Positions 13,763-64,000 of a stretch of DNA of 64,000 bases are shown here, in pieces; position 1 is the stretch's first letter; the number at the start of each line of letters is the position of its first letter. The notes below the pieces were generated by a model. It did not search any database, was not told the DNA's origin, and was given only the letters and a program-made list of their open reading frames with translations. The stretch is taken from contig DATGKN010000161.1 of assembly GCA_035294645.1 (NCBI GenBank), positions 102,428 through 166,427 on the forward strand, written 5' to 3'. This stretch comes from Chloroflexota bacterium (lineage in GTDB: Bacteria > Chloroflexota > UBA6077 > JAJPHF01). A program made the position numbers and the translations under genes.

Positions 13763-14905
13763 CTAGCGCGGGATGGGGCCCAGCACCTCGCGCGCGTAGC
13801 GCACGAAGCGGTCGTCGACTAGTTGCTCGGGGGGAATCGGCTGGGCAAGCTGGAGGGTGCCGTTGGCTATCAGCACCCGCTGCTCGTCGAGGATGAGGTC
13901 GAGCTGGATCTCCAGGTTGGGGTCCCAGGTGTACGGAACCTGGTCGCGGAGCACCGCTTCCGACGCGCCGGTGTGCTGCTGGAAGGCCGCGAGGTTCTCC
14001 GGCGTGAACAGGCGGTCGGGGTAGCTGACGCCCAGCTCCGGCCCCTGGATGTCGCGCACGCCGCGCAGGGTGGCCACCATCCAGCGGCGCGCGGCCTCCT
14101 CGCGCTCGCGAATGAAGTGGCCGGAGTACATCACCACCGTGGTCATGCGCAGGGGAGCGATCTCGGCCAGCAGTTTGGCCGCCACCCCTTGTTTGAGCGC
14201 GCGGGTCGCGAACGGCTCGGCGGTGATGGCCGCATCGATAGCACCCGTGGCGAACGCCGAGGCGTGGTCGGGGAACGGCAGCGTCACCATCTCCACGTCG
14301 GTTAGCGCCAGGCCATCGCGCTCCAGGGCCCGGGTGAGGAGATACTCGACGATAGCGCCGCGCGTGTTCACCGCCACACGGCGCCCGCGCAGGTCGGCCG
14401 GAGAGTGCACCGCACCGCTCTCGACCAGGTCGCGGCGGGCCAGTAGGGGCAAGGCGCTATCCTGGCGCGGCAGGATGCCCATCGGCGCCACGATCCGGAT
14501 GTCCAGGCCACGCTCGAAGGCGTTGAAGGTCCCGGCGCTGATGGCGCCGAGGTTGACGTCCACGTCGCCGCGCGCCAGGGCGGGCACGACATCGGCACCG
14601 CCCGCGAAGTTCTCGAAGGTGAGCTCTAGGCCCAGCTCGCGGTAGTAGCCGCGCGCCTCGGCCACGTACACCGGCGCGTAGGCGATGGCGGCGGTCTCCG
14701 CCACCCGCACGGTCTCCAGCAAGCGCGGGGCAGGAGACGTGAGGAGCGGTGTGGCGGCCGAGGCCGCGACGTCCCCACGCGCGCCCGTCGCCGCTGCCGG
14801 CGTGACGGGCGCCTGGCCCGCGGGTACGGCGCAGCCGGCCACCAGTAGGCCACCGGCCAAGAGTGCCCCCAGGGCGAATAAGGCGGACACTCGCCAGCCT
14901 GGCAT
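13763..14905 (-). CDS. NMT1/SsuA-like ABC-type solute-binding lipoprotein (nitrate/sulfonate/bicarbonate family)
   Basis: Lipobox LLVAGCA, then the SsuA/NMT1-family fold (YAPVYVAEARGYY...DVNLGAISAGTFNAFERGLDIRIV). ATG at 14905 with a GGAGGAGGAG SD. The longer ORF to 15475 overlaps the MFS gene. Confidence 0.75.
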   Translation of the reverse strand: MPGWRVSALFALGALLAGGLLVAGCAVPAGQAPVTPAAATGARGDVAASAATPLLTSPAPRLLETVRVAETAAIAYAPVYVAEARGYYRELGLELTFENFAGGADVVPALARGDVDVNLGAISAGTFNAFERGLDIRIVAPMGILPRQDSALPLLARRDLVESGAVHSPADLRGRRVAVNTRGAIVEYLLTRALERDGLALTDVEMVTLPFPDHASAFATGAIDAAITAEPFATRALKQGVAAKLLAEIAPLRMTTVVMYSGHFIREREEAARRWMVATLRGVRDIQGPELGVSYPDRLFTPENLAAFQQHTGASEAVLRDQVPYTWDPNLEIQLDLILDEQRVLIANGTLQLAQPIPPEQLVDDRFVRYAREVLGPIPR

Positions 14906-17183: not shown

Positions 17184-17507
17184 ATGTCCAGCGGACAAAC
17201 GGGCCGCGGCGAGGCCAGCGAGCAGTCCGGCGCGGGTGCACCGCCGGCGCCGGAGACCGCCTGCGCCCTGTGCCGCGCACCGCTGCCACCTGGCCACCGC
17301 TACCTCTGCGCCGCGTGCGTCGCGGCCAGCGAGCGGGTCGCGACGGCGATCCTCGCTCGCACTACCGCGCCGACCATCGGCCCGGGCGACGCAGCGGTAC
17401 CCGAGCCCGCGGCGAGCGACGAGGAACCCGATACCTGCCCCACGTGCGGCATGCGGCTGGATCCCAGCGGGCGCTGCGCCGGCTGCGTGACCACGGTGCG
17501 GCGCTAG
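17184..17507 (+). CDS. Small zinc-ribbon protein (CxxC...CxxC...CPTCG...CAGC)
   Basis: ATG with a GGAGGAGAG SD. Four Cys pairs. No other domain. Confidence 0.45.
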   Translation: MSSGQTGRGEASEQSGAGAPPAPETACALCRAPLPPGHRYLCAACVAASERVATAILARTTAPTIGPGDAAVPEPAASDEEPDTCPTCGMRLDPSGRCAGCVTTVRR

Positions 17508-17512
17508 CCGCG

Positions 17513-18382
17513 TCAATCGAGCGGGGCGGGCGCGCCGCGCGGGCCCGCCAGCTGGGCGATGCGCCGCCGGGCACGGCGGAGATCGGCGTACAGCCCGCTG
17601 AGCACGAACAGGCCAGCGGCGACCAGCACAACCGTGGCGCCCGAGGCGACATCGAAGAAGTAGCTCAGGTAGATCCCGGCCGCCCCACATAGCGCGCCGA
17701 TAGCGGTGGACAGCAGCATCATACGGCCGAAGCTATGGGTGAGCTGCCGCGCGATCACCGCAGGGATCACCAGCGCGGCGGCGATAAGGGTCACGCCCAG
17801 CACCTGCATCGAGGCAACGATGGTAGCCGCCAGCACCAGGGCGAGGAGCGTATCCATCCATGCGGTCGGCACCCCATGCACCTCTGCCACCTCGGGGTCG
17901 AACGTAGCGAACAGCAGTGGCTTGTAGGCGCAGAACACCGCCATCCCACAGCCCACGGCCGTGGCGGCCACCACCAGCAAATCCTCGCGGGCGACGCCCA
18001 GCACGTTGCCGAACAGCGCGGCCTCGAAGTTGGTGGTGAACTGGCGAGCGTGACTGATGATCGCCACGCCGAGGGCGAAGCTGGCGGTCGTCACGATGCC
18101 GATGGCGGCATCCGCCCCGATACGGCGCCGGCGCACCGTCTCGTTGATCAGCAGGGCCGAGAGCACCCCCCACACGCTCGCCGCGAGGTAGAAGTTGAGG
18201 TGCAGCACGTAGCCGAGCACGGCCCCGCCGAAGATCGAGTGTGACAAGCCGTGCCCGATGTAGCTCATGTGCCGCAGTACCACGTACACGCCCACCAGGC
18301 CGCACAGCCCGCCCGCCAGCACCGCCGCGAGCAGCCCACGGGTGAAGAACTCGTAGCCGAACGGCTCGACCAGGTTCGGCAT
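17513..18382 (-). CDS. Metal ABC transporter permease (ZnuB/MntB/TroD family)
   Basis: ABC-3 family TM pattern. ATGA overlap with the upstream ATPase gene. Confidence 0.8.
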   Translation of the reverse strand: MPNLVEPFGYEFFTRGLLAAVLAGGLCGLVGVYVVLRHMSYIGHGLSHSIFGGAVLGYVLHLNFYLAASVWGVLSALLINETVRRRRIGADAAIGIVTTASFALGVAIISHARQFTTNFEAALFGNVLGVAREDLLVVAATAVGCGMAVFCAYKPLLFATFDPEVAEVHGVPTAWMDTLLALVLAATIVASMQVLGVTLIAAALVIPAVIARQLTHSFGRMMLLSTAIGALCGAAGIYLSYFFDVASGATVVLVAAGLFVLSGLYADLRRARRRIAQLAGPRGAPAPLD

Positions 18383-19248
18383 CAGGAACTCCGCCGGCTG
18401 GGCGATTCCTGCACGGCCGCGGCAGGCGTCGTGGGCCAGGGGTGGTCGATCACCACCGCCACGTCGCCCTCGCGCACGACGCGCAGCGGGGCGTTGTACA
18501 GCCGCGAGAGCACCTCGTCGCGAAACACGACCGAGGGCGGCCCGTGGGCGATGACCGTGCGATTGAGACACACGAGGTAGGGCAGGTGCGTGGCCACAGC
18601 GTTCAGCTCATGGGTGGACAGCACGATGGTGGTCCCCTGCGCTTGAAGCTCGGCCAGCAGGTGGAGGATCTCGTGCCGCGTGCGGATGTCGACGCCACTA
18701 GTCGGCTCGTCGAGCAGCAGCAGGCGGGGCTGGCGGAACAGGGCGCGCGCCAGGAACACTCGCTGCTGTTGGCCGCCGGAGAGCTCGCGAATGTGGCGCC
18801 GCTCTAGCCCCGCGAGGCCCAACCGCGCCAGCAGCACGCGGGCCTCGGTGCGCGCGCGGCGGCTCGTCCAGGGCCAGGGGCCTAGCGCCATGGCGCGCCC
18901 CATCAGCACCACTTCCTCGACGGTCACCGGGAACGACCAGTCCACCGTTTCCACCTGCGGGACGTAGCCCAGCAGCGCGCGGCAGCGGCCGACCGGCTGG
19001 CCATCGATCAGGACCATGCCCGCCACGGGCTTGACCAAGCCCAGCGCCGCTTTGAGGAACGTGGTTTTGCCGGAGCCGCTGGGCCCGACTAGCCCCACCA
19101 GCTGCCCAGGCGCGATGCGCAGCGTGATGTCCTGCAGGACCGGGGGCCCATCGTAGCTGCAAGTGACCCCGCGGAACTCCAGCTGCACCCCGCGCGGGGC
19201 AACCGCGCCATCGTCGCCCCACGGCAGGGAACAGAGCCGCTCAGCCAT
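18382..19248 (-). CDS. Metal ABC transporter ATP-binding protein (ZnuC/MntA family)
   Basis: Walker A GPSGSGKTT, LSGGQQQR signature and Walker B LLLDEP. Its start overlaps the cbtA stop. Confidence 0.8.
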   Translation of the reverse strand: MAERLCSLPWGDDGAVAPRGVQLEFRGVTCSYDGPPVLQDITLRIAPGQLVGLVGPSGSGKTTFLKAALGLVKPVAGMVLIDGQPVGRCRALLGYVPQVETVDWSFPVTVEEVVLMGRAMALGPWPWTSRRARTEARVLLARLGLAGLERRHIRELSGGQQQRVFLARALFRQPRLLLLDEPTSGVDIRTRHEILHLLAELQAQGTTIVLSTHELNAVATHLPYLVCLNRTVIAHGPPSVVFRDEVLSRLYNAPLRVVREGDVAVVIDHPWPTTPAAAVQESPSRRSS

Positions 19249-20014
19249 ATCGCGATGGCAACGGGGGCGAGGCCAGCGGGCCACCACCAGCCCGCGCGGG
19301 GCCAGCGGCCCGGCTGCCGCGCGCAAGCAGCAGCCCGAACACAACGCCCAGCACCCCCCACAGCACGCCCTGGCCAGCCAGGCTCGCCACGCGGAAGGGC
19401 ACGACGATGTCGGCTGGCAGCGTCACCGGGTCGGGAGGAGGCGGCATGACCAGCAGGAGCACCGCGGCGTAGACCGCATACGCTCCCACGGCGCCGGTCA
19501 GCGCGGCGCGCCCACCGCGTGCCCGCAGGAGCTGATACACGCCGCTAGCCACCACCAGGCCGCCGAAAGACAGAACCCAGAACAACAGGAACAGCGCCTG
19601 GCGGGAGCCGATAGTCTCCGGGTCGCCCACCCCAGGAGGGTTGGCCGGGTATTTCAGCAGGGGCAGCAGGCCGATCAGCCAGCCGACGATCAGCGCGGCC
19701 AGCAGCCCGTTGAGCCCTGGGCCCACGCGCGGCAACTGCGGGCGCACGAGCGCGCATCCTGCGCCCAACAGTAGGCCCAGGAAGGCCCCGTATAGCACCG
19801 AGCCGATCAGCAGCCCCACGCGCTGCATCTCCCGCGTCACTACCTCGGGCTCGGGTGCGAGGCCCTCCGCAGCGTGGTGGGCCGCTTCGAGCGCGATCGC
19901 CCGCTCGATGAGCGGCTCGGAGAGCAAGAAGTGGAACAGGCCGAAGACGAGGCCCGCTACTAGCCCCGCTCCCACAGCGGCGAGCACGATGGTCCGGGTA
20001 CGCAAGCCGGTCAC
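19241..20014 (-). CDS. cbtA: Cobalt transporter subunit CbtA
   Basis: About 250-aa 5-TM protein with an N-terminal His-rich loop (EAAHHAAEG). Lies immediately after cbtB, downstream of a B12 riboswitch. Confidence 0.7.
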   Translation of the reverse strand: MTGLRTRTIVLAAVGAGLVAGLVFGLFHFLLSEPLIERAIALEAAHHAAEGLAPEPEVVTREMQRVGLLIGSVLYGAFLGLLLGAGCALVRPQLPRVGPGLNGLLAALIVGWLIGLLPLLKYPANPPGVGDPETIGSRQALFLLFWVLSFGGLVVASGVYQLLRARGGRAALTGAVGAYAVYAAVLLLVMPPPPDPVTLPADIVVPFRVASLAGQGVLWGVLGVVFGLLLARGSRAAGPARAGGGPLASPPLPSRYG

Positions 20015-20092: not shown

Positions 20093-20296
20093 TCAGTGGC
20101 AGGGGAAGCCGGCCGCATGGCGCATGTCGTGGACTAGCTCGTGGATGAGGTTGAGGTCGAAGGCCTGCTGGCCCTGGACCAGCGCGAGGGTCTGCCCCTG
20201 GTCGAAGCCGAGTACGAACAGCCCGAACAGCCCGAGTAGCAGGAGCAGCCAGACACGCGGGGATACCGCAACCGGAGTAACAGCGAGCGGACGCAT
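20093..20296 (-). CDS. cbtB: Cobalt transporter subunit CbtB
   Basis: 67-aa single-TM protein ending in the His/Cys-rich tail HELVHDMRHAAGFPCH. GGAGGAG SD. Confidence 0.7.
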   Translation of the reverse strand: MRPLAVTPVAVSPRVWLLLLLGLFGLFVLGFDQGQTLALVQGQQAFDLNLIHELVHDMRHAAGFPCH

Positions 20297-20399: not shown

Positions 20400-20580
20400 G
20401 TCCACGAGCGCGCGCGAAGCAAACGGCAGGTGCAGGCGTTCTGGCTCGCTCGCCAGCGGCGAGCATACAGCTGCGGGTCAGCGCCGGCCTCACACCGGAC
20501 TTTCCCTGCACGGCCCTGCTCGGGCCAGACCTGCCGGGCAGCAGCAGACTGCCAGCGCCGTTATACCATCCGCGCCTCTC
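20400..20580 (-). ncRNA. Cobalamin (AdoCbl) riboswitch in the 5' leader of cbtB
   Basis: The minus-strand RNA contains GCAGGGAAAGUCCGGUGUGAGGCCGGCGCUGACCCGCAGCUGUA, which fits the GGGAA..GGUG.GA..CC...CCCGC.ACUGUA core. About 60 nt downstream sits a B12-box-like AGCCAGAACGCCUGCACCUGCC. Confidence 0.6.
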
Positions 20581-20670: not shown

Positions 20671-20919
20671 TCAAGAGGGAAGCGCGGTACCGCAGACCGC
20701 GCAGTAGCGGGCAGGCTCGGCGCTCCACACGCCGCACCGCGGGCAGGGCCGCGCCGGTAGCGCCGGCTCCTCCGCCCGCACGCCCTGCTGCCAGCCGGCA
20801 ACCAGCGCGCGCCAGCTCTGGCCTAGCGCGCGGCCGGTATTTACCAGCCGGCGCGGGCCCAGCAGCAGCAAGACCAGCGCGAGGATCACGAGCAGGTGCA
20901 GCGGCTGGAGCGCCCCCAT
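20671..20919 (-). CDS. TatA/E-family twin-arginine translocase subunit fused to a C-terminal zinc ribbon
   Basis: N-terminal TM helix then the hinge LLLLGPRRLVNTGRALGQSWRAL (compare the FGPKKLPELGRSLG motif). C-terminal CPRCG-x10-YCAVCG. ATGA coupling to the upstream paralogue. Confidence 0.6.
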   Translation of the reverse strand: MGALQPLHLLVILALVLLLLGPRRLVNTGRALGQSWRALVAGWQQGVRAEEPALPARPCPRCGVWSAEPARYCAVCGTALPS

Positions 20920-21266
20920 CAGCCCCCTCCGGCGCTACGCGTGGTGGCGGGCGGCTCCACTAGGCAGTGGCCACAGTTGGAACAATAGCGCGCCCCCGCG
21001 CTGCTACGCGCGCCACACTGCGCGCAGTACGGCCCACTCGCCGCTGCCTGGCTCATGGCGGCGAGCCGCTGCTGCCGACGCTCCTCGGCGGCGAGCTGTA
21101 GGCTCTGCTGGAACTCTTCGCTGAGCTGGTTGGCCTGGCGGCGCAGCTCAGCCAAGGTCCGGCCCAATTGGTTGGCCACCTCGGGCAACCGCTCGGGCCC
21201 GATCACCACCAGGGCGAGCACCAGGATCAGCAACAGCTCGCCGAGGCCGATGCCCATGAACTCCAT
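20919..21266 (-). CDS. TatB/TatA-family translocase subunit fused to a C-terminal zinc ribbon
   Basis: MEFMGIGLGELLLILVLALVVIGPERLPEVANQLGRTLAELRR matches the TatA/B consensus. C-terminal YCAQCG-x9-RYCSNCG. The ORF extends to 21854 through a low-complexity region, so the ATG at 21266 is taken as the start. Confidence 0.6.
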   Translation of the reverse strand: MEFMGIGLGELLLILVLALVVIGPERLPEVANQLGRTLAELRRQANQLSEEFQQSLQLAAEERRQQRLAAMSQAAASGPYCAQCGARSSAGARYCSNCGHCLVEPPATTRSAGGG

Positions 21267-21380: not shown

Positions 21381-21409
21381 GCCCGCGCTTGACAAGCGCG
21401 CGAACGGCG
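21381..21409 (+). promoter_or_regulatory. Sigma-70-like promoter TTGACA-N19-TATACT
   Basis: Near-consensus hexamers about 65 nt upstream of the lytic transglycosylase start. Confidence 0.35.
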
Positions 21410-24432: not shown

Positions 24433-25395
24433 ATGGAGCCCCTACCGCGCGGCGCCCAGTTCATCCGCGCGAAGATGCTCTGGGAGATCGCCCTGCACAT
24501 CGCCGGCGACCCGAACGAGCCGTACTACGGCAACCGCGACATCTGCATCACGGTCGGCAGCGGCTCGGGCGAGCGCTATAAGCCGTGGCTGCGCCTGTCG
24601 GTCGGCTCGCCCATCCTCGCCCACGCCGTGGTCCGCGGCGAGCTCGACTTGGCGTTCGTGAACCCTTCCGGCTGTCTTACCCAGATGTATCGCGGTACGG
24701 GCCTGTTCACCGCCCCACTGCCCGTACGCCTGGTGGCTTGCTACCCCTCGTGGGACCGCTACGTCCACTGTATCCACCCGCGCACGGGGCTGACCTCGCT
24801 GGCGCAGATCAAGGAGCGCCAGTACCCGCTGCGCCTGTCGATCCGCGAGGACCCGACCCACTCCACGCGCGTGCTACTCGACCAGACGCTGGCCTGCTAT
24901 GGCTTCACGCTCGACGACATCGTGCGCTGGGGCGGCTCGCTGCAGCTCAACGGCGGCCCGGGTGACCCGCGCCGGATGCGCGCGCTGCATGCCGGCGAGA
25001 TCGACGCCATCTTCGACGAGGGGCTCGTGCTCTGGTTCGACGAGGCGCTGGCGGCCGGCATGCGGCCCATCCCGCTGGAGGATGAGGTGTTCGCCCGGCT
25101 TCAGGCGCTCGGCTGGCGCCGCGTTACCATCCCCGCTGGCCGCTTCCCGCACCTGACCGAGGACCACGACTGCCTCGACTATAGCGGCTGGCCGCTGTAC
25201 ACCCGGGCCGACCTGCCCGACGAGGTGGCCTACCGCGTCTGCGATGCCATCGCGGCGCGCGCCGACGAGATCCCCTGGGAGCAGGGCGCTTTTACCGGGC
25301 TCGACCAGCTCGGCCGCGATACCGAGGCCACCCCGATCGACGTGCCGCTGCACCCCGGCGCCGAGCGCTGGTACCGCGAGCGGGGCTACCTCTAG
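24433..25395 (+). CDS. TAXI-family TRAP solute-binding-protein-like protein lacking a signal peptide
   Basis: FVNPSGCLTQMYRGTGLF...LRLSIRED...LLDQTLACYGFTLDDI resembles the TAXI SBP core. GAGGAGG SD. Confidence 0.45.
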   Translation: MEPLPRGAQFIRAKMLWEIALHIAGDPNEPYYGNRDICITVGSGSGERYKPWLRLSVGSPILAHAVVRGELDLAFVNPSGCLTQMYRGTGLFTAPLPVRLVACYPSWDRYVHCIHPRTGLTSLAQIKERQYPLRLSIREDPTHSTRVLLDQTLACYGFTLDDIVRWGGSLQLNGGPGDPRRMRALHAGEIDAIFDEGLVLWFDEALAAGMRPIPLEDEVFARLQALGWRRVTIPAGRFPHLTEDHDCLDYSGWPLYTRADLPDEVAYRVCDAIAARADEIPWEQGAFTGLDQLGRDTEATPIDVPLHPGAERWYRERGYL

Positions 25396-27637: not shown

Positions 27638-28729
27638 CTACTGGTACGGCCCGAGCTGCGCCGCCGCGTACTCGGCGAAGCTGGAGTCGACCACGCTGTC
27701 CACTGTCTGGGCGCCGGTGTAGTAGCCGCGCTGCCGGTAGTAGTCCAGCTCGATCTGCATGCTGGCCCGCTGCAAGCGACCGTCGGGGTCTAGGCCGGCC
27801 ATGTTCATGCGGTCGTACACGGCGGGATCCTTGAGCGGGGTCTCGCGGGCCAGCACGCGGATCACGTCGGCGCGCCGGACGCCCTTGCCGAAGGCGTCGT
27901 TGTATACGCGCACGCCTTGGAGATAGGCGATCATGAACCGTCGGGCCAGCTCTGCCTGGGCGATGAAGCGGTCGGAGAAGTACAGCACCCCGGCCTGGTA
28001 GGGGCCGTTGAACGCCACGCTGGTGTAGCCAGGCTCCCAGGGCGCGACGAGGTGGCGGTCGACCGCCGCACTGAGGGTCGGCTCGATGAGCACGCCCCCG
28101 TCGATCGCGCCGTTGGCCAGTGCCGTCAGCATGTCGGGGTAGCTCAGCACCGTCAGGTCCACGTCGTCGACGGTCAGGCCGCCCTGGAGCAGCACGCGGG
28201 CGGCGATCGCCTCGGCCCCCGAGCGCAACGAGGCTACACCGAGCCGGCGGCCGCGCAGGTCAGCCGGGGTGCGCACCGCGCCGCTCTCGATCAGGTCGCG
28301 GCGCACCGGCAGCTGCGAGAATTCGAACCCCGGTCGCGACTGCCCCTTGTCGGCGACGATCTTGATGCCCACGCCGCGGTCCACCGCGTTGAGCACCGCC
28401 AGGTTGAAATTCCCGCCGCCCACCTCCAGTTCGCCGCTGCCCAGCGGCGCGATCACGTTCGGGCCACTGTCGAAGGGCAGCGTCTCCACCTCGATGCCCT
28501 GGGCCTGGAAGAACCCCCACTCCCGCCCGAGGAACACGCCGGCGTCGGAGACGGCCTGGGGGGAACCGAAGCGCACCCGGCTCAGTTGTGGCGCGGGCCC
28601 CTCGGCGGCAGCCGCCCGTGGCGGCGGGCCGTCCCAGGGCCAGGAGGCCGCCAGCAGCCCCCCAAGAAGGGCGGCGAGCACGACGGCGCACGACCGCCAG
28701 CGCCGTAGGCCGCTAGGTAGTAGCGTCAT
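27638..28729 (-). CDS. NMT1/SsuA-like ABC-type solute-binding protein
   Basis: Paralogue of the 13763 SBP (GIEVETLPFDSGPNVIAPLGSGELEV...DLRGRRLGVAS). Signal peptide. Confidence 0.75.
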   Translation of the reverse strand: MTLLPSGLRRWRSCAVVLAALLGGLLAASWPWDGPPPRAAAAEGPAPQLSRVRFGSPQAVSDAGVFLGREWGFFQAQGIEVETLPFDSGPNVIAPLGSGELEVGGGNFNLAVLNAVDRGVGIKIVADKGQSRPGFEFSQLPVRRDLIESGAVRTPADLRGRRLGVASLRSGAEAIAARVLLQGGLTVDDVDLTVLSYPDMLTALANGAIDGGVLIEPTLSAAVDRHLVAPWEPGYTSVAFNGPYQAGVLYFSDRFIAQAELARRFMIAYLQGVRVYNDAFGKGVRRADVIRVLARETPLKDPAVYDRMNMAGLDPDGRLQRASMQIELDYYRQRGYYTGAQTVDSVVDSSFAEYAAAQLGPYQ

Positions 28730-55927: not shown

Positions 55928-57022
55928 TCAGCGACCGGCCGGCCAGCGGCCCAGCTGCGCCACCGCGTAGTCGGCCAGTCGCGTGTCGATCAACCGCTCG
56001 GCGGGCAGCGGATCGGTATAGGTCGTGGCCCGCGAGGCGATATGCACGCGCTGTTGATCGAGCAGGCTATCGGTGTCGATGACAAAGTTCGGCTCGAAGC
56101 GCGGCAGGTACTGCAGCTGGCGCACCAGCTCGGGCTGGTTCCCTGTCCAGCGCGCGAACACGGCCGTGGCGGCGTCGCTCTTGAGCTGCTCGTCCGTCTG
56201 GAGCTCGCGCACGGCGCGCAGGTAGGCGAGCAAGAAGCGCCGGCCCAGCTCGGGCTCCGCCTCCCGCAGGCGGCTGCCCGCCATCAGTACGATCGACAAG
56301 CGCTCGGGCAGCGGGCCGGGATCGAGCGCCACAGCGCTGCCTTCCAACAACATGCGCGTGGCCCACGGATCGGAGAACACGCCACCGTCGATCTGGCGGT
56401 TGGCCATGGCGAGGGGCGCGTCCTGCAGGGGCATGGTGATCGCCTCGACATCCTCGGGGCGCAGGCCGGCATTCTCTAGCACCTGCGTGCGGATGTAGAC
56501 GGCGCCGGAGCCAGGCGCCACGCTGTAGACGCGCCGACCGCGGAAGTCGGCGACCGACCGCACGACGCCGCTATCCCACAGGTCCTTGCGCACGAGGACC
56601 GCGTTGCGGGCTACATACGCCACGGGCGCGATAATGCGCACATCGAGGCCCTGGTAGACGGCGTTGAACAGCGGGACCGCGATGGCTCCCATCGCCACAT
56701 CGAGCTGCCCATTGGCCAGGAAAGCAATGGCATCGGCGGCCGACTGGACCGGCTCCGTCTGGAGCTCGATGCCTTGAGCCTCGAAGTAGCCACGATCGAT
56801 GGCCCAGAACAGCGGCGCCTGGTCGAGCGCGTTGACGTAGCTCAGCTTCACGGGCCGTAGCGACATGGGCGGCGAGGGGGTCGCGCTGGCCTGCGCGGGC
56901 CGCTCGGCCGCCGCGGGCTGGGGCGAGCTGCCGCGGCCGGCACTGCCCGCCCCGGTGCAACCCATCAGCCCGCTCAGCGCCGCGAGCACTAGGACCACGG
57001 GCGCTACCGCTCGGAGGTGCAT
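55928..57022 (-). CDS. NMT1/SsuA-like ABC-type solute-binding lipoprotein
   Basis: Lipobox LMGCTGA. SsuA-family body. Last gene of the gntR-ubiD-aldolase series. Confidence 0.75.
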   Translation of the reverse strand: MHLRAVAPVVLVLAALSGLMGCTGAGSAGRGSSPQPAAAERPAQASATPSPPMSLRPVKLSYVNALDQAPLFWAIDRGYFEAQGIELQTEPVQSAADAIAFLANGQLDVAMGAIAVPLFNAVYQGLDVRIIAPVAYVARNAVLVRKDLWDSGVVRSVADFRGRRVYSVAPGSGAVYIRTQVLENAGLRPEDVEAITMPLQDAPLAMANRQIDGGVFSDPWATRMLLEGSAVALDPGPLPERLSIVLMAGSRLREAEPELGRRFLLAYLRAVRELQTDEQLKSDAATAVFARWTGNQPELVRQLQYLPRFEPNFVIDTDSLLDQQRVHIASRATTYTDPLPAERLIDTRLADYAVAQLGRWPAGR

Positions 57023-60570: not shown

Positions 60571-61676
60571 TCAGCGGGCGGAGCCCAGCTGCCGCACCGC
60601 TTGCTGGATCAGCGACAGGTCGAGCACCGCGTCCAGATCGACGCGTTGGGAGATCAGGCCCTGTTCCAGGTACCACTCCTGGTCGTCGCGGATCGACTGG
60701 ACGTTGGGGATCGGATCGGCCTTCAGCCCCGACGGGATCGCTCGCTCGAACAGCGACCGCTCTTTCACCGTGGTGCGCTCGATGAGGATCGGCACCACCG
60801 CGTCGAATAGCGCCGGGTCGCGCTCCATGATGCCCTTCACGTAGTCGCGCACGCCGCGCGTGTAGGCGCGCAGGTAGCGCAGGGCCAGGTCGCGGTCGCC
60901 GGTCAGCCGCTCGCCGAACAGCACCACCCCGATCTGCTGGTCCGGGTAGACATCGTAGCCGATCGGCCCGCGCACCGCGATGCCGCGCTCCACCGCGATG
61001 GTGGTGAACGGCTCCTGGTAGTACGCTGCCTCGAGCGCGCGGTTGGCCAGCGCCGGAAGCTGGTCGGGAAACGGCATTACCACCAGCTCGATGTCCTTGA
61101 GCGTCAGCCCCCCCTGGCGCAGGAAGCGGTCGAGCGCGATGTCCGCCGCGCTGCCCGGGGTTCCCGAGGCCACCCGCCAGCCCCGCAAGTCGGCCGGCCC
61201 CCGGTACGCCCCGCTATCGACCAGGTCCTTGCGGATGGCGATGCCGCCGGCCGAGGCGTTGGGGAGGTTCGCGCCGTGGTCGGCGACGATCCTCACGGGT
61301 ACCCCGCGGGCGAGCGCGTTGAACAGGAAGGCGTTGATCGCCGCGCCCGCGACATCCGCCGTGCCCGAGACGACCGCTGGCACCTGGTCGGCACCGGCCA
61401 TGGGGAGGAACTCCGCCTGGATTCCCTCCTGCGCGAAGTAGCCCCGCGCGTCGGCGATGTAGCTGCCGGCGGCCGACGTGATCTGGATGTCGGTGATGCG
61501 CACAGGGGTCGGGGGCGGGGGCTGGGCGCGACCGGGACGGTGGGCGCGGCTCCGCTGGCTGGCGCGGGCACGGCGCGCTCGGGAGCGGCCCCGGGCGCAC
61601 CGGCCGCGCAGGCACTCAAGATCCAGGTCACCACGCAGACGGTGATCGCGGGGACAACGCGCCGCAGGCGATTCAT
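60571..61676 (-). pseudogene. NMT1/SsuA-like solute-binding lipoprotein interrupted by a frameshift in a poly-C/Pro-rich linker
   Basis: Signal peptide plus lipobox (MNRLRRVVPAITVCVVTWILSACAAG, ATG 61676, GGAGGA SD) in one frame. The mature SBP domain (VRITDIQ... from about 61503) is in another frame. The junction lies in cccccgcccccgacccc. Confidence 0.5.
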
Positions 61677-61714: not shown

Positions 61715-63061
61715 TCAGCCGTAGGAGCGCGCCGTCTCGGCGGCCGTGGTGCCGGCCGCGCGCCCGAGCGTGAGCGCCATGGCGAGCCCGCCGCCGTAGC
61801 GCTCGTAAAACGTCCCACCAGCGTCGGCGCCGGCCGCGTACAACCCGGCGATCGGCTGGCCGCCGCGATCCAGCACCCGGCAGCGAGCGTCGATGCGCAG
61901 CCCGCCGTGGGTGAAGGTGATGGCCGGCGCGAGGGCCACGGCGAAGAACTCCGGGGTGGCCAGCGGCGCCCGGTGCGCGGCACGCGGCACGGGCAGCGCG
62001 GCGTCGCTGTCGGCGGCCATGGCGTGGTTGTAGTCGGCGAGCGTGCGCGCCAGGCTGCGGGTGCGCACGCCCCAGGCGCCCAGGTGCTCGACGAGCGCCT
62101 CGAGGGTAGGGGCGGTGGTCACGCGGCCGCCCAGCGCGCGCGTGATGGCCACGCGGTCGAGGCCAGGCGGCTGCCCCAGGATGCGCCGCTCGTACACCGC
62201 GCGGTCGAACAGGGCGAACACGGTAGCCTGCTCCTGGCGGGCGGCGGCCTGCGCGTTCATCTCGTCGCCTTGCGACTCGTCGGTGAACCGCTCGCCCCCC
62301 AGGTTGACCAGCACCGCGTAGCGGCTGTAGTACGCCGTGGCAGGCAGGAAATCGCGGGGCGTGAGCACGGCCGGCGGCGCGGGCAGCAGGTGGCCATAGA
62401 AGGCGTGCAGGCCCCGGCTGGTCGCCGCGCCGACCGCGAGCCCCATCAGCAGGCCGTCGCCCACGCTGTGGGGGTTGGAGCGCACGAGCATGCGGTCGGC
62501 CCAGCGCCCGATATAGCGGGTGGTCAGCTCGGGGTTGCCCTGGAAGCCGCCGCTGGCCAGCACGACCGCGCCGCTGGCGAACGCCACGAGGCCGGCGGGC
62601 TGGCGAGCCACCACGCCGGTCACGCGCCCCGTCTCGTCGGTAGTGAGGCGCACGGCGCGGGTGCGCGTGTGCAGCTGGCCGCCACGGGCCTGGAACACGG
62701 TGGCCAGGTGGCGCAGCGCGGCCGGCGGCTCCAGGTGGTGGGTGCGGCCGAAGCGAAACTCGTTGCTCTCGGCGGGAACGACCGCCACACCGAGGGCCCG
62801 CAGCCATTGGATAGCGGCCTCGTAGCCGTCCACGAGCACGCGGCCCTGGTCGGGATCGCCGAGGGGGATAGCCGCACGCAGCGCGTCGTACGTTGGGTAG
62901 GTGGCGACGAAGCCGGCCGAGAGCGCGGCCGAGCCGCCGGGCTCGGGACCGGCCTCCAGCAGGGCCACGCGCGCCCCGTGCTCCTGAGCCGCGAGGGCGG
63001 CGGCGAGCCCGGCCATGCCGGCCCCGACCACCGTGACATCGGGGTGCAGGACGTCACGCAT
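61715..63061 (-). CDS. FAD-dependent oxidoreductase (FAD_binding_2; fumarate reductase/KstD-like flavoprotein)
   Basis: VTVVGAGMAGLAAAL dinucleotide-binding motif and C-terminal GLYAAGADAGG motif. ATGA overlap with the upstream SBP gene. Confidence 0.7.
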   Translation of the reverse strand: MRDVLHPDVTVVGAGMAGLAAALAAQEHGARVALLEAGPEPGGSAALSAGFVATYPTYDALRAAIPLGDPDQGRVLVDGYEAAIQWLRALGVAVVPAESNEFRFGRTHHLEPPAALRHLATVFQARGGQLHTRTRAVRLTTDETGRVTGVVARQPAGLVAFASGAVVLASGGFQGNPELTTRYIGRWADRMLVRSNPHSVGDGLLMGLAVGAATSRGLHAFYGHLLPAPPAVLTPRDFLPATAYYSRYAVLVNLGGERFTDESQGDEMNAQAAARQEQATVFALFDRAVYERRILGQPPGLDRVAITRALGGRVTTAPTLEALVEHLGAWGVRTRSLARTLADYNHAMAADSDAALPVPRAAHRAPLATPEFFAVALAPAITFTHGGLRIDARCRVLDRGGQPIAGLYAAGADAGGTFYERYGGGLAMALTLGRAAGTTAAETARSYG

Positions 63062-64000
63062 CAGCAGCTGGGCCTCCGCGGGTGCTCCACCGGCTGATAG
63101 GGGCCGAGCACGGCGTTGGCGTAGTCCAGGAAGCTCTGGTCTAGCACCTGGCTGATGTCCGCGCGGCGGGTGACCAGCCCGCGCTCGACGAACCAGTCCT
63201 GGTAGGCGGCCAGTCGCGCGGGGTCGAGGTAGCCGGCGGGGTTCTGGCCGGTGGGCGGGATCTTGCAGATCAGCGCCGCGTCCTTCAGCGGGGTGTACTT
63301 CTGCAGCACGTCGATCACGCGCTGGAAGTCGAGCCGGCCATCGTAGGCGTCCCAGTAGTCGCGGATGCCGCGCAGGTAGGCGACCATCCAGTTCCGCGCG
63401 GCCGGGGTGTTGCGGGCGAACGTCTCGCTGTATAGGATCCCCGCCACGTGGCCGCCGGGATCGACGTCGTCGGTGTACACGATCTTGCGCAGCACCCCGG
63501 CCTGTTCGAGCTGGGTCGCCCACGGCTCGTTGTTGATCGCCGCATCGAGCGCCTTGTTGGCCAGCGCCAAGTTCATGTCGGGGAACGGCAGCGCCACGAT
63601 CTCCACGTCGTCGCGCGTCAGCCCGCCGCGCTGGAGCATCAGCTCCAGATAGTACTCGGTCAGGGTGCCGAGCTGCTGCACGGCGACCTTCAGGCCGCGC
63701 AGGTCGCTATAGCCGGTCCATGGGTGCTGCGCCAGCAGGTCACTGCGGATCGTCAGGCTGGGGGTGGAGCGCCCGGGCAGGTTGCTGCCGTGGTCGGCCA
63801 CCAGGCGGATGCCCACGCCGCGCGCCACGGCGTTGAACAACTGGGGCGCGATGGCCCCGAAGCCCACGTCGAGCTGGTCGCTGCTGAGCAGGGCCACGAT
63901 CTCGGCGGTCGAGTTCAGGTTCACGATCTCGATCTCGATGCCCAGCTCGCGGAAGTAGCCCTGCTCCAGCGCGAGGAAGGTCGGGGCCTGGGCGGCTAGC
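63061..64000 (-). CDS. NMT1/SsuA-like solute-binding protein (5' end beyond window edge)
   Basis: The SBP body continues in frame to the window boundary (LAAQAPTFLALEQGYFRELGIEIEIVNLNST...). Confidence 0.7.
   Translation of the reverse strand, partial: LAAQAPTFLALEQGYFRELGIEIEIVNLNSTAEIVALLSSDQLDVGFGAIAPQLFNAVARGVGIRLVADHGSNLPGRSTPSLTIRSDLLAQHPWTGYSDLRGLKVAVQQLGTLTEYYLELMLQRGGLTRDDVEIVALPFPDMNLALANKALDAAINNEPWATQLEQAGVLRKIVYTDDVDPGGHVAGILYSETFARNTPAARNWMVAYLRGIRDYWDAYDGRLDFQRVIDVLQKYTPLKDAALICKIPPTGQNPAGYLDPARLAAYQDWFVERGLVTRRADISQVLDQSFLDYANAVLGPYQPVEHPRRPSC

Follow-up and report, generated by a model that had tools for sequence, protein, structure and literature searches.

In a high-GC bacterium of the Chloroflexota, we identified two adjacent genes that encode a TatB-type protein (ORF1) and a TatA-type protein (ORF2), each of which ends in a putative zinc ribbon. 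Both genes are on the minus strand of the 64,000-nucleotide stretch of DNA that we analysed (the window). Judged from sequence, ORF1 and ORF2 are genuine TatB-type and TatA-type subunits, and we consider both this identity and the conservation of the module to be established. The ribbon-tailed architecture is also widespread and under selection. We think it likely that these are Tat subunits whose cytoplasmic tail would fold into a metal-binding module that serves in structure or docking. The features of the pair are:

20919..21266, minus strand: ORF1, a tatB-type gene with a zinc-ribbon tail (115 amino acids plus stop; start MEFMGIGLGE)
21201..21245, minus strand: short transmembrane helix of ORF1, residues 8-22 (AF2 helix; E10, 12 hydrophobic residues, G23-P24)
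21042..21200, minus strand: hinge and amphipathic/extended helix of ORF1, residues 23-75 (AF2 helix 24-75; aligns with 9e03_B 1-67)
20970..21026, minus strand: putative zinc ribbon of ORF1, C81-x2-C84-G...C95-x2-C98-G (cysteines invariant, n=28; PF13240 E = 7.8e-5)
20917..20930, minus strand: junction that would couple ORF1 to ORF2, a GGAGGGGG Shine-Dalgarno sequence and then TGATG (read from sequence)
20671..20919, minus strand: ORF2, a tatA-type gene with a zinc-ribbon tail (82 amino acids plus stop; start MGALQPLH)
20860..20910, minus strand: short transmembrane helix of ORF2, residues 4-20 (AF2 helix; H8, 12 hydrophobic residues, G21-P22)
20773..20856, minus strand: amphipathic helix of ORF2, residues 22-49 (AF2 helix; conserved G29, L32, G33, S35, W36, R37)
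20689..20745, minus strand: putative zinc ribbon of ORF2, C59-P-R-C62-G...C73-x2-C76-G (cysteines invariant, n=12; DZR E = 0.0065)

The G+C content of the window is 71.5%, and the variation of GC across codon positions in ORF1 and ORF2 is like that of real genes. The stop codon of ORF1 (TGA, 20921-20919) and the start codon of ORF2 (ATG, 20919-20917) have an A in common, which gives a 1-nt overlap. The Shine-Dalgarno sequence for ORF2, GGAGGGGG, is at 20930-20923, within the 3' end of ORF1, and GAGGG is found at 21275-21271, 5 nt ahead of the ATG of ORF1. As the initial annotation had proposed, the best explanation is that the two genes are expressed as a translationally coupled bicistron. The 1-nt overlap is found in the window's lineage only: in relatives, the genes are always adjacent, with gaps of 5 to ~107 nt.

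ORF1 is an exact match to a protein that NCBI names TatB (P0001), and ORF2 is an exact match to a TatA/TatE family protein (P0061); both are from a Chloroflexota metagenome-assembled genome (MAG). Identical copies of both proteins are encoded on 5 contigs from independent public assemblies, so their C-termini are not assembly artefacts. Together with the retention of the motif in relatives, this eliminates truncation or sequencing error as the origin of the C-termini, which the initial annotation had named as a way in which it could be wrong.

Both proteins match the Pfam family TatA_B_E (PF02416) above its cut-off of 21 bits (44.8 bits for ORF1 and 27.6 bits for ORF2), as do all 28 TatB-type and all 12 TatA-type relatives. 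ORF1 also passes the NCBIfam equivalog model for TatB (TIGR01410; 59.9 bits vs. a cut-off of 56.5). ORF2 scores just 15.0 bits against this model, which is below the cut-off, so it is not a TatB. Its best NCBIfam matches are to TatA models, all of them below the cut-offs (TIGR01411, 28.3 bits vs. 53.9; NF001854, 33.4 bits vs. 72). These scores make ORF2 a TatA-like protein that belongs to PF02416 but is divergent. Using a profile of the ORF1 family to search the sequences in the PDB, we found TatB (9e03_B, E = 3.3e-13), TatAd (2l16, E = 2.6e-11), and chloroplast TatA (7b7o, E = 5e-11). These solved chains match the profile over the first 50-70 residues. The N-terminal halves had been placed in the TatA/B family from the letters of the DNA, and these searches agree.

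The details of the sequences are also as expected for Tat subunits. ORF1 has E10, 12 hydrophobic residues, and then G23-P24-x-R-L-P; ORF2 has H8, 12 hydrophobic residues, and then G21-P22-R-R-L. In the alignment of the ORF1 family, E10 and G23 are invariant, and P24, L27, and P28 are conserved as well. In the alignment of the ORF2 family, H8 is invariant, G21 is nearly invariant, and G29 and G33 are conserved. The spacing from E10 to G23-P24 in ORF1 is the same as from E8 to G21-P22 in E. coli TatB. Similarly, H8...G21 of ORF2 corresponds to Q8...G21 of E. coli TatA in an ungapped alignment of positions 1-41. In the AF2 models of both proteins (mean pLDDT of 76 for ORF1 and 78 for ORF2), a hinge separates the transmembrane helix from the amphipathic helix, and a small ribbon of beta knuckles follows. 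Helix 24-75 of ORF1 has a pLDDT of ~73-84 per 10-residue block. The canonical Tat helices and hinge in the initial annotation are thus borne out by the conserved positions and by the predicted helices.

ORF1 resembles TatB (from E. coli, in 9e03_B, and as described by TIGR01410) in having an N-terminal Glu in a short transmembrane helix, a Gly-Pro hinge, RLP, and an amphipathic helix with a longer helix behind it. Unlike in TatB, the tail of ORF1 is a putative C4 zinc ribbon instead of being unstructured, the gene is away from tatC, and it is paired with a ribbon-bearing TatA-type gene. ORF2 resembles TatA/TatE and TatAd in its polar position 8 (His for Gln), its 12 hydrophobic residues, Gly21, and the G29/L32/G33/S35 pattern. 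Where E. coli TatA has Phe-Gly-Thr, ORF2 has Leu20-Gly-Pro. ORF2 also lacks the acidic, densely charged tail of TatA, and has instead a C4 ribbon with an invariant Trp behind the first knuckle.

In both proteins, the motif of the tail is C-x2-C-x10-C-x2-C, with a Gly behind each pair of cysteines. The four cysteines are invariant in the 28 TatB-type and 12 TatA-type relatives, and the linker ahead of the ribbon varies. R61 and W65 are also invariant in the ORF2 family (n=12). The initial annotation described each tail as a double YC..CG knuckle: the four-cysteine module is present in both proteins, but the first knuckle of ORF2 is PCPRCG. The proteins in the window score below the Pfam gathering scores for zinc ribbons, both for PF13240 (22.8 bits for ORF1 and 15.4 bits for ORF2; gathering score 25) and for DZR (PF12773; 18.4 and 17.0 bits; gathering score 27.3). 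At the level of the families, PF13240 matches 28/28 of the TatB-type proteins (E <= 1e-3) and 9/12 of the TatA-type proteins (E <= 0.01), which supports the earlier description of the C-termini as four-cysteine modules of the zinc-ribbon type. A six-frame search of the 64-kb window with a regular expression found only 8 such motifs, of which two are the tails of ORF1 and ORF2. Given this low number and the conservation of the motif in independent assemblies, the cysteine motif is not due to chance.

AF2 predicts beta bridges or strands at the knuckles of both proteins, and residues 81-100 of ORF1 have a pLDDT of 82-85. A Foldseek comparison of the whole model to the PDB gave no significant match, and the fragments that did align were ribbon-sized. 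The nearest solved fragment to the ribbon of ORF1 is the zinc ribbon of RadD (rmsd of 0.8 Å over 29 columns; not statistically significant), and further fragment matches, to eL40 and to RanBP2-type fingers, were not statistically significant either. As in ribbons of PF13240 and PF12773 (such as eL40, bL32, and RadD), the tails have C-x2-C-G...[FY]-C-x2-C-G, two beta knuckles, and a similar predicted geometry. Unlike generic ribbons, each tail is a single ribbon that is tethered to a Tat membrane subunit.

The topology of TatA and TatB is accepted to be N-out/C-in. This would put the ribbon in the cytoplasm, a location that suits thiolates that are reduced and bind metal. We infer that the ribbon binds metal via its four cysteines.

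Profile-profile alignment with hhalign places the ORF1 and ORF2 families in register from the transmembrane helix through the ribbon (probability 99.1%, E = 1.9e-18). By this alignment, the two families are paralogs with one common architecture. The pairing of the two genes is also conserved. All nine distinct lineages of the TatB-ribbon protein with enough flanking sequence (56-100% identity) have a second ribbon-bearing Tat gene next to it. In 8/9 lineages, the partner is of the ORF2 type and is directly downstream. The exception is the lineage of L099/L100, where a TatA that looks more canonical, and also has a ribbon, is directly upstream. Both partners carry the ribbon in every case, and the flanking genes otherwise differ.

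The upstream gene of that exceptional lineage is at 773-1039 of L099 and at 9541-9807 of L100, and it encodes the more canonical TatA (FGPGKLPELGSALGNGIREFKR) with its ribbon. The type and the order of the partners are swapped there, and both ribbons are kept.

Both proteins retain the canonical working part of a Tat subunit: the polar residue, the 12-residue hydrophobic helix, the Gly-Pro hinge, and the amphipathic helix, which lies along the cytoplasmic side. Where other Tat subunits have a disordered acidic tail, each has a short linker and a single C4 zinc-ribbon knuckle, which would thus be in the cytoplasm. The four cysteines of the ribbon would hold one metal ion (Zn, or possibly Fe), and the ribbon, small and folded, would serve in structure or in protein interactions. 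The partner TatC would be encoded elsewhere in the genome. The ribbons could gather the tails of TatA and TatB at the cytoplasmic face during assembly. Alternatively, the ribbon could dock a partner, such as a substrate or a cofactor chaperone, much like the metal-binding domain at the C-terminus of SecA, which is a docking site for SecB and for ribosomes and can bind either Zn or Fe (10.1101/613315, PMC6620043).

SecA is a functional analogy only. It is also a translocase component with a flexible linker and a tiny Cys-rich domain at its extreme C-terminus. But there is no sequence homology, its motif is CxCx8C[H/C], it acts in the Sec pathway with unfolded substrates, and it is a soluble ATPase instead of a membrane subunit. 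As for Tat itself, TatB is reported to contact folded substrates and to act in quality control (PMC2993744, PMC9436932). The C-terminal regions of TatA are close together during transport, and the tails are described as highly charged and probably unstructured in a 2026 review of the Tat mechanism (PMC13186574), which does not mention zinc. Our literature search found no paper that combines TatA or TatB with a zinc ribbon. This is in line with the initial annotation, which considered a metal-binding tail to be outside of the textbook Tat system. Ribbon-tailed TatA/B proteins are already in the databases as plain TatA or TatB, with the tail unnamed and unstudied. These annotations conceal that the architecture is a distinct one and that many uncultured Chloroflexota have it.

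There is still debate on the assembly of TatA and TatB and on how they let folded proteins pass, and the models treat the C-terminal tails as disordered and largely dispensable. A natural, strongly conserved four-cysteine site on both subunits gives a handle on whether contacts between tails, or between a tail and a partner, matter. For spectroscopy or cross-linking, the ribbon is also a probe that is already in place on the cytoplasmic side, and it is a possible tie between Tat export and the metal or redox state.

The ribbon could instead be a lineage-typical decoration with no role specific to Tat: a folded cap, added at low cost, would only stabilise or shield the tail, and the proteins would work just as ordinary TatA and TatB do. 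The Zn_Ribbon_1 and DZR domains are promiscuous in these bacteria, and poly-ribbon proteins, some with as many as 19 repeats, match the ribbon profile in very large numbers. The number of ribbons in TatA varies from 1 to 4, and the length and sequence of the linker are free. Also, Lee et al. in 2002 reportedly found in a truncation study that E. coli TatA and TatB can largely do without their tails; the contribution of the ribbon to transport as such may therefore be small. Nevertheless, we think that a decoration is unlikely. The four cysteines are invariant across lineages (at 56-100% identity) and in both paralogs, both partners of the paired module always keep the ribbon, and the invariance of R61 and W65 around the ribbon of ORF2 suggests a specific surface and not a neutral cap.

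The initial annotation had raised the question of whether such fusions are restricted to this lineage. They are not: ribbon-tailed TatA/B proteins are a common design in the Chloroflexota and are widespread in metagenome-derived genomes from this phylum. This wide spread lowers the rarity of the fusion. In a scan with one genome per species, 14 of the best 80 loci were ribbon-tailed TatA/B genes, and all were from MAGs labelled as Chloroflexota, Chloroflexia, or Dehalococcoidia, except for a 2.2-kb contig binned as Nevskia. From an exhaustive profile search, we used only full-length single-stretch hits; the totals (59,304 / 4,971 / 22) are not a count of fusions because poly-zinc-ribbon proteins flood the list. 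In this search, TatA/B proteins that end in 1-4 ribbons form at least 20 clusters at 50% identity. A profile built from 20 diverse fused proteins had 3,720 hits at E <= 1e-5. Among the best 120 of these hits, nearly all match both PF02416 and zinc-ribbon Pfams, and their names in the source are merely "TatA" or "TatB". Wherever the source names the organism, it is a Chloroflexota MAG (the organism is recorded for almost none of the distant fused clusters). In other Chloroflexota, the ribbon-TatA gene is monocistronic and has a stable synteny (aldo-keto reductase, tatA-Zn, Lipoprotein_15, HtrA-like protease). A single chromosome of 2.31 Mb contains at least two ribbon-TatA genes.

The contig with the Nevskia label (L011, DASRFD010000127.1, 2,198 bp) carries a Chloroflexota-type TatB-Zn/TatA-Zn pair, and it was probably binned in error into a MAG labelled as Nevskia sp. 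(Gammaproteobacteria). Separately, the ribbon profile also pulls in many proteins that consist almost wholly of tandem ribbons (P0073-P0112), with up to 19 ribbons in 1,317 amino acids and without any other Pfam domain. These poly-ribbon proteins are a large unexplored class.

A stronger claim is that, in much of the Chloroflexota, the pore and receptor subunits of the Tat system have a cytoplasmic metal-thiolate module that takes an active part in the mechanism, as a docking site or as a Zn/Fe redox switch. We consider this claim unlikely. If true, there would be a coupling between the metal or redox status and the export of metalloproteins in folded form: with docking, cofactor-loaded substrates or their chaperones would be handed to the translocase, and with a switch, the assembly of TatA and TatB would be gated.

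The switch in particular seems to us very unlikely. In it, the tail would change conformation when the thiolates are oxidised or when the metal (Zn or Fe) is lost or exchanged, which would gate the oligomerisation of TatA/B and couple the export of cofactor proteins to the metal or redox state. CxxCG...CxxCG does resemble the sites of rubredoxins, and a miniaturised rubredoxin is among the weak matches in the PDB (E = 0.076). SecA-like metal-binding domains bind iron in vivo (10.1101/613315). The pair also adjoins a cluster for cobalt or metal transport, directly downstream of ORF2:

20414-20547, minus strand: cobalamin riboswitch RF00174 (43.3 bits vs. a gathering score of 31.5), directly downstream of ORF2
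20093-20296, minus strand: cbtB, behind the riboswitch
19241-20014, minus strand: cbtA
~17513-19248, minus strand: ABC ATPase and ABC-3 permease

The riboswitch with the cbtB, cbtA, and ABC genes looks like a B12-controlled operon for uptake of cobalt or other metals. We rejected a tie between the Tat pair and this cluster, as the cluster is controlled separately by the cobalamin riboswitch and is not kept next to the pair in relatives. Both points also weigh against the switch. Furthermore, no sequence feature tells a sensor site apart from a structural site. A structural or docking role for a metal-binding tail still seems to us to be the likely one.

Convergent with the ABC-3 permease gene, at 17184-17507 on the plus strand, is a gene for a 107-amino-acid protein that has no Pfam hit. 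CxxC...CxxC is present twice in this protein, as CALC...CAAC and as CPTC...CAGC, and it may be a further small protein that binds metal. On the other side of the pair, upstream of ORF1 and divergent from it, are genes for a lytic transglycosylase (SLT) and an S8 peptidase. The divergent intergenic region runs for 208 nt from the start of tatB-Zn at 21266 to the start of the SLT gene at ~21475. Within it, at 21383-21399, is a perfect 17-nt palindrome, CGCGCTTGTCAAGCGCG, and then GGGCGGGTTTTCG on the minus strand. The palindrome could be an operator or a hairpin. A scan of the region between ORF1 and the SLT gene for consensus promoters and terminators found nothing.

The initial annotation also stated that there is no tatC in the window, and our searches agree. 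With tblastn, the best match in the window to E. coli TatC was just 21 bits. (We validated this query by its matches to 56 other loci, with E down to 1e-96.) With five TatC proteins from Chloroflexota as queries, the best match had E = 0.24. Nor is tatC found in ~8 kb and 6.5 kb of sequence past the two ends of the window (~14 kb, for ~78 kb in all). Similarly, none of the 24 ribbon-bearing loci with at least 1.5 kb of downstream sequence have tatC within 10 kb, vs. 80/91 plain TatB-like loci with tatC downstream (at a median of 18 nt), but the comparison is confounded by phylogeny. We read it as evidence that the ribbon genes are unlinked from tatC, and not as evidence of a lack of tatC. The plain loci are mostly from Desulfobacterota or Proteobacteria, and among the plain loci from Chloroflexota, ~5 have an adjacent tatC vs. 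7 that do not. Because tatC is linked to the ribbon genes nowhere, it is homology alone that assigns the pair to the Tat translocase.

The 0/24 vs. 80/91 and the lack of tatC from ~78 kb would also fit a TatC-independent membrane module on the TatA fold, such as a ribbon-recruited device for membrane weakening or stress, but this is exceedingly improbable: tatA is apart from tatC in many bacteria, plain TatA/B genes of other Chloroflexota often have no adjacent tatC, the residues that are needed for TatC-dependent function (polar position 8 and the Gly hinge) are invariant, and ORF1 passes the equivalog model for TatB.

We also looked for potential substrates. When the window was scanned for the motif of twin-arginine signal peptides, the two matches were weak and unconvincing, and we found no gene for a Tat substrate that neighbours the pair. 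In relatives, genes for NMT1-type substrate-binding proteins are found beside the pair (behind it in L005 and L008), and these proteins have Sec-type lipoprotein signals.

Genes of the NMT1/NMT1_2 type (SsuA/THI5-like) are unusually numerous in the window and its flanks. Those that we examined have Sec-type lipoprotein signals and not twin-arginine signals. Examples are:

13763-14905, minus strand: NMT1-type gene
24433-25395, plus strand: NMT1-type gene
27638-28729, minus strand: NMT1-type gene
55928-57022, minus strand: NMT1-type gene
60571-61503, minus strand: NMT1-type gene
63061-63924, minus strand: NMT1-type gene

Upstream of the gene at 60571-61503, at ~61500-61620 on the minus strand, another frame encodes MNRLRRVVPAITVCVVTWILSAC. 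This signal peptide is of the lipoprotein type and contains an RR pair. That this signal is out of frame may reflect a frameshift or a mis-called start of the NMT1 gene.
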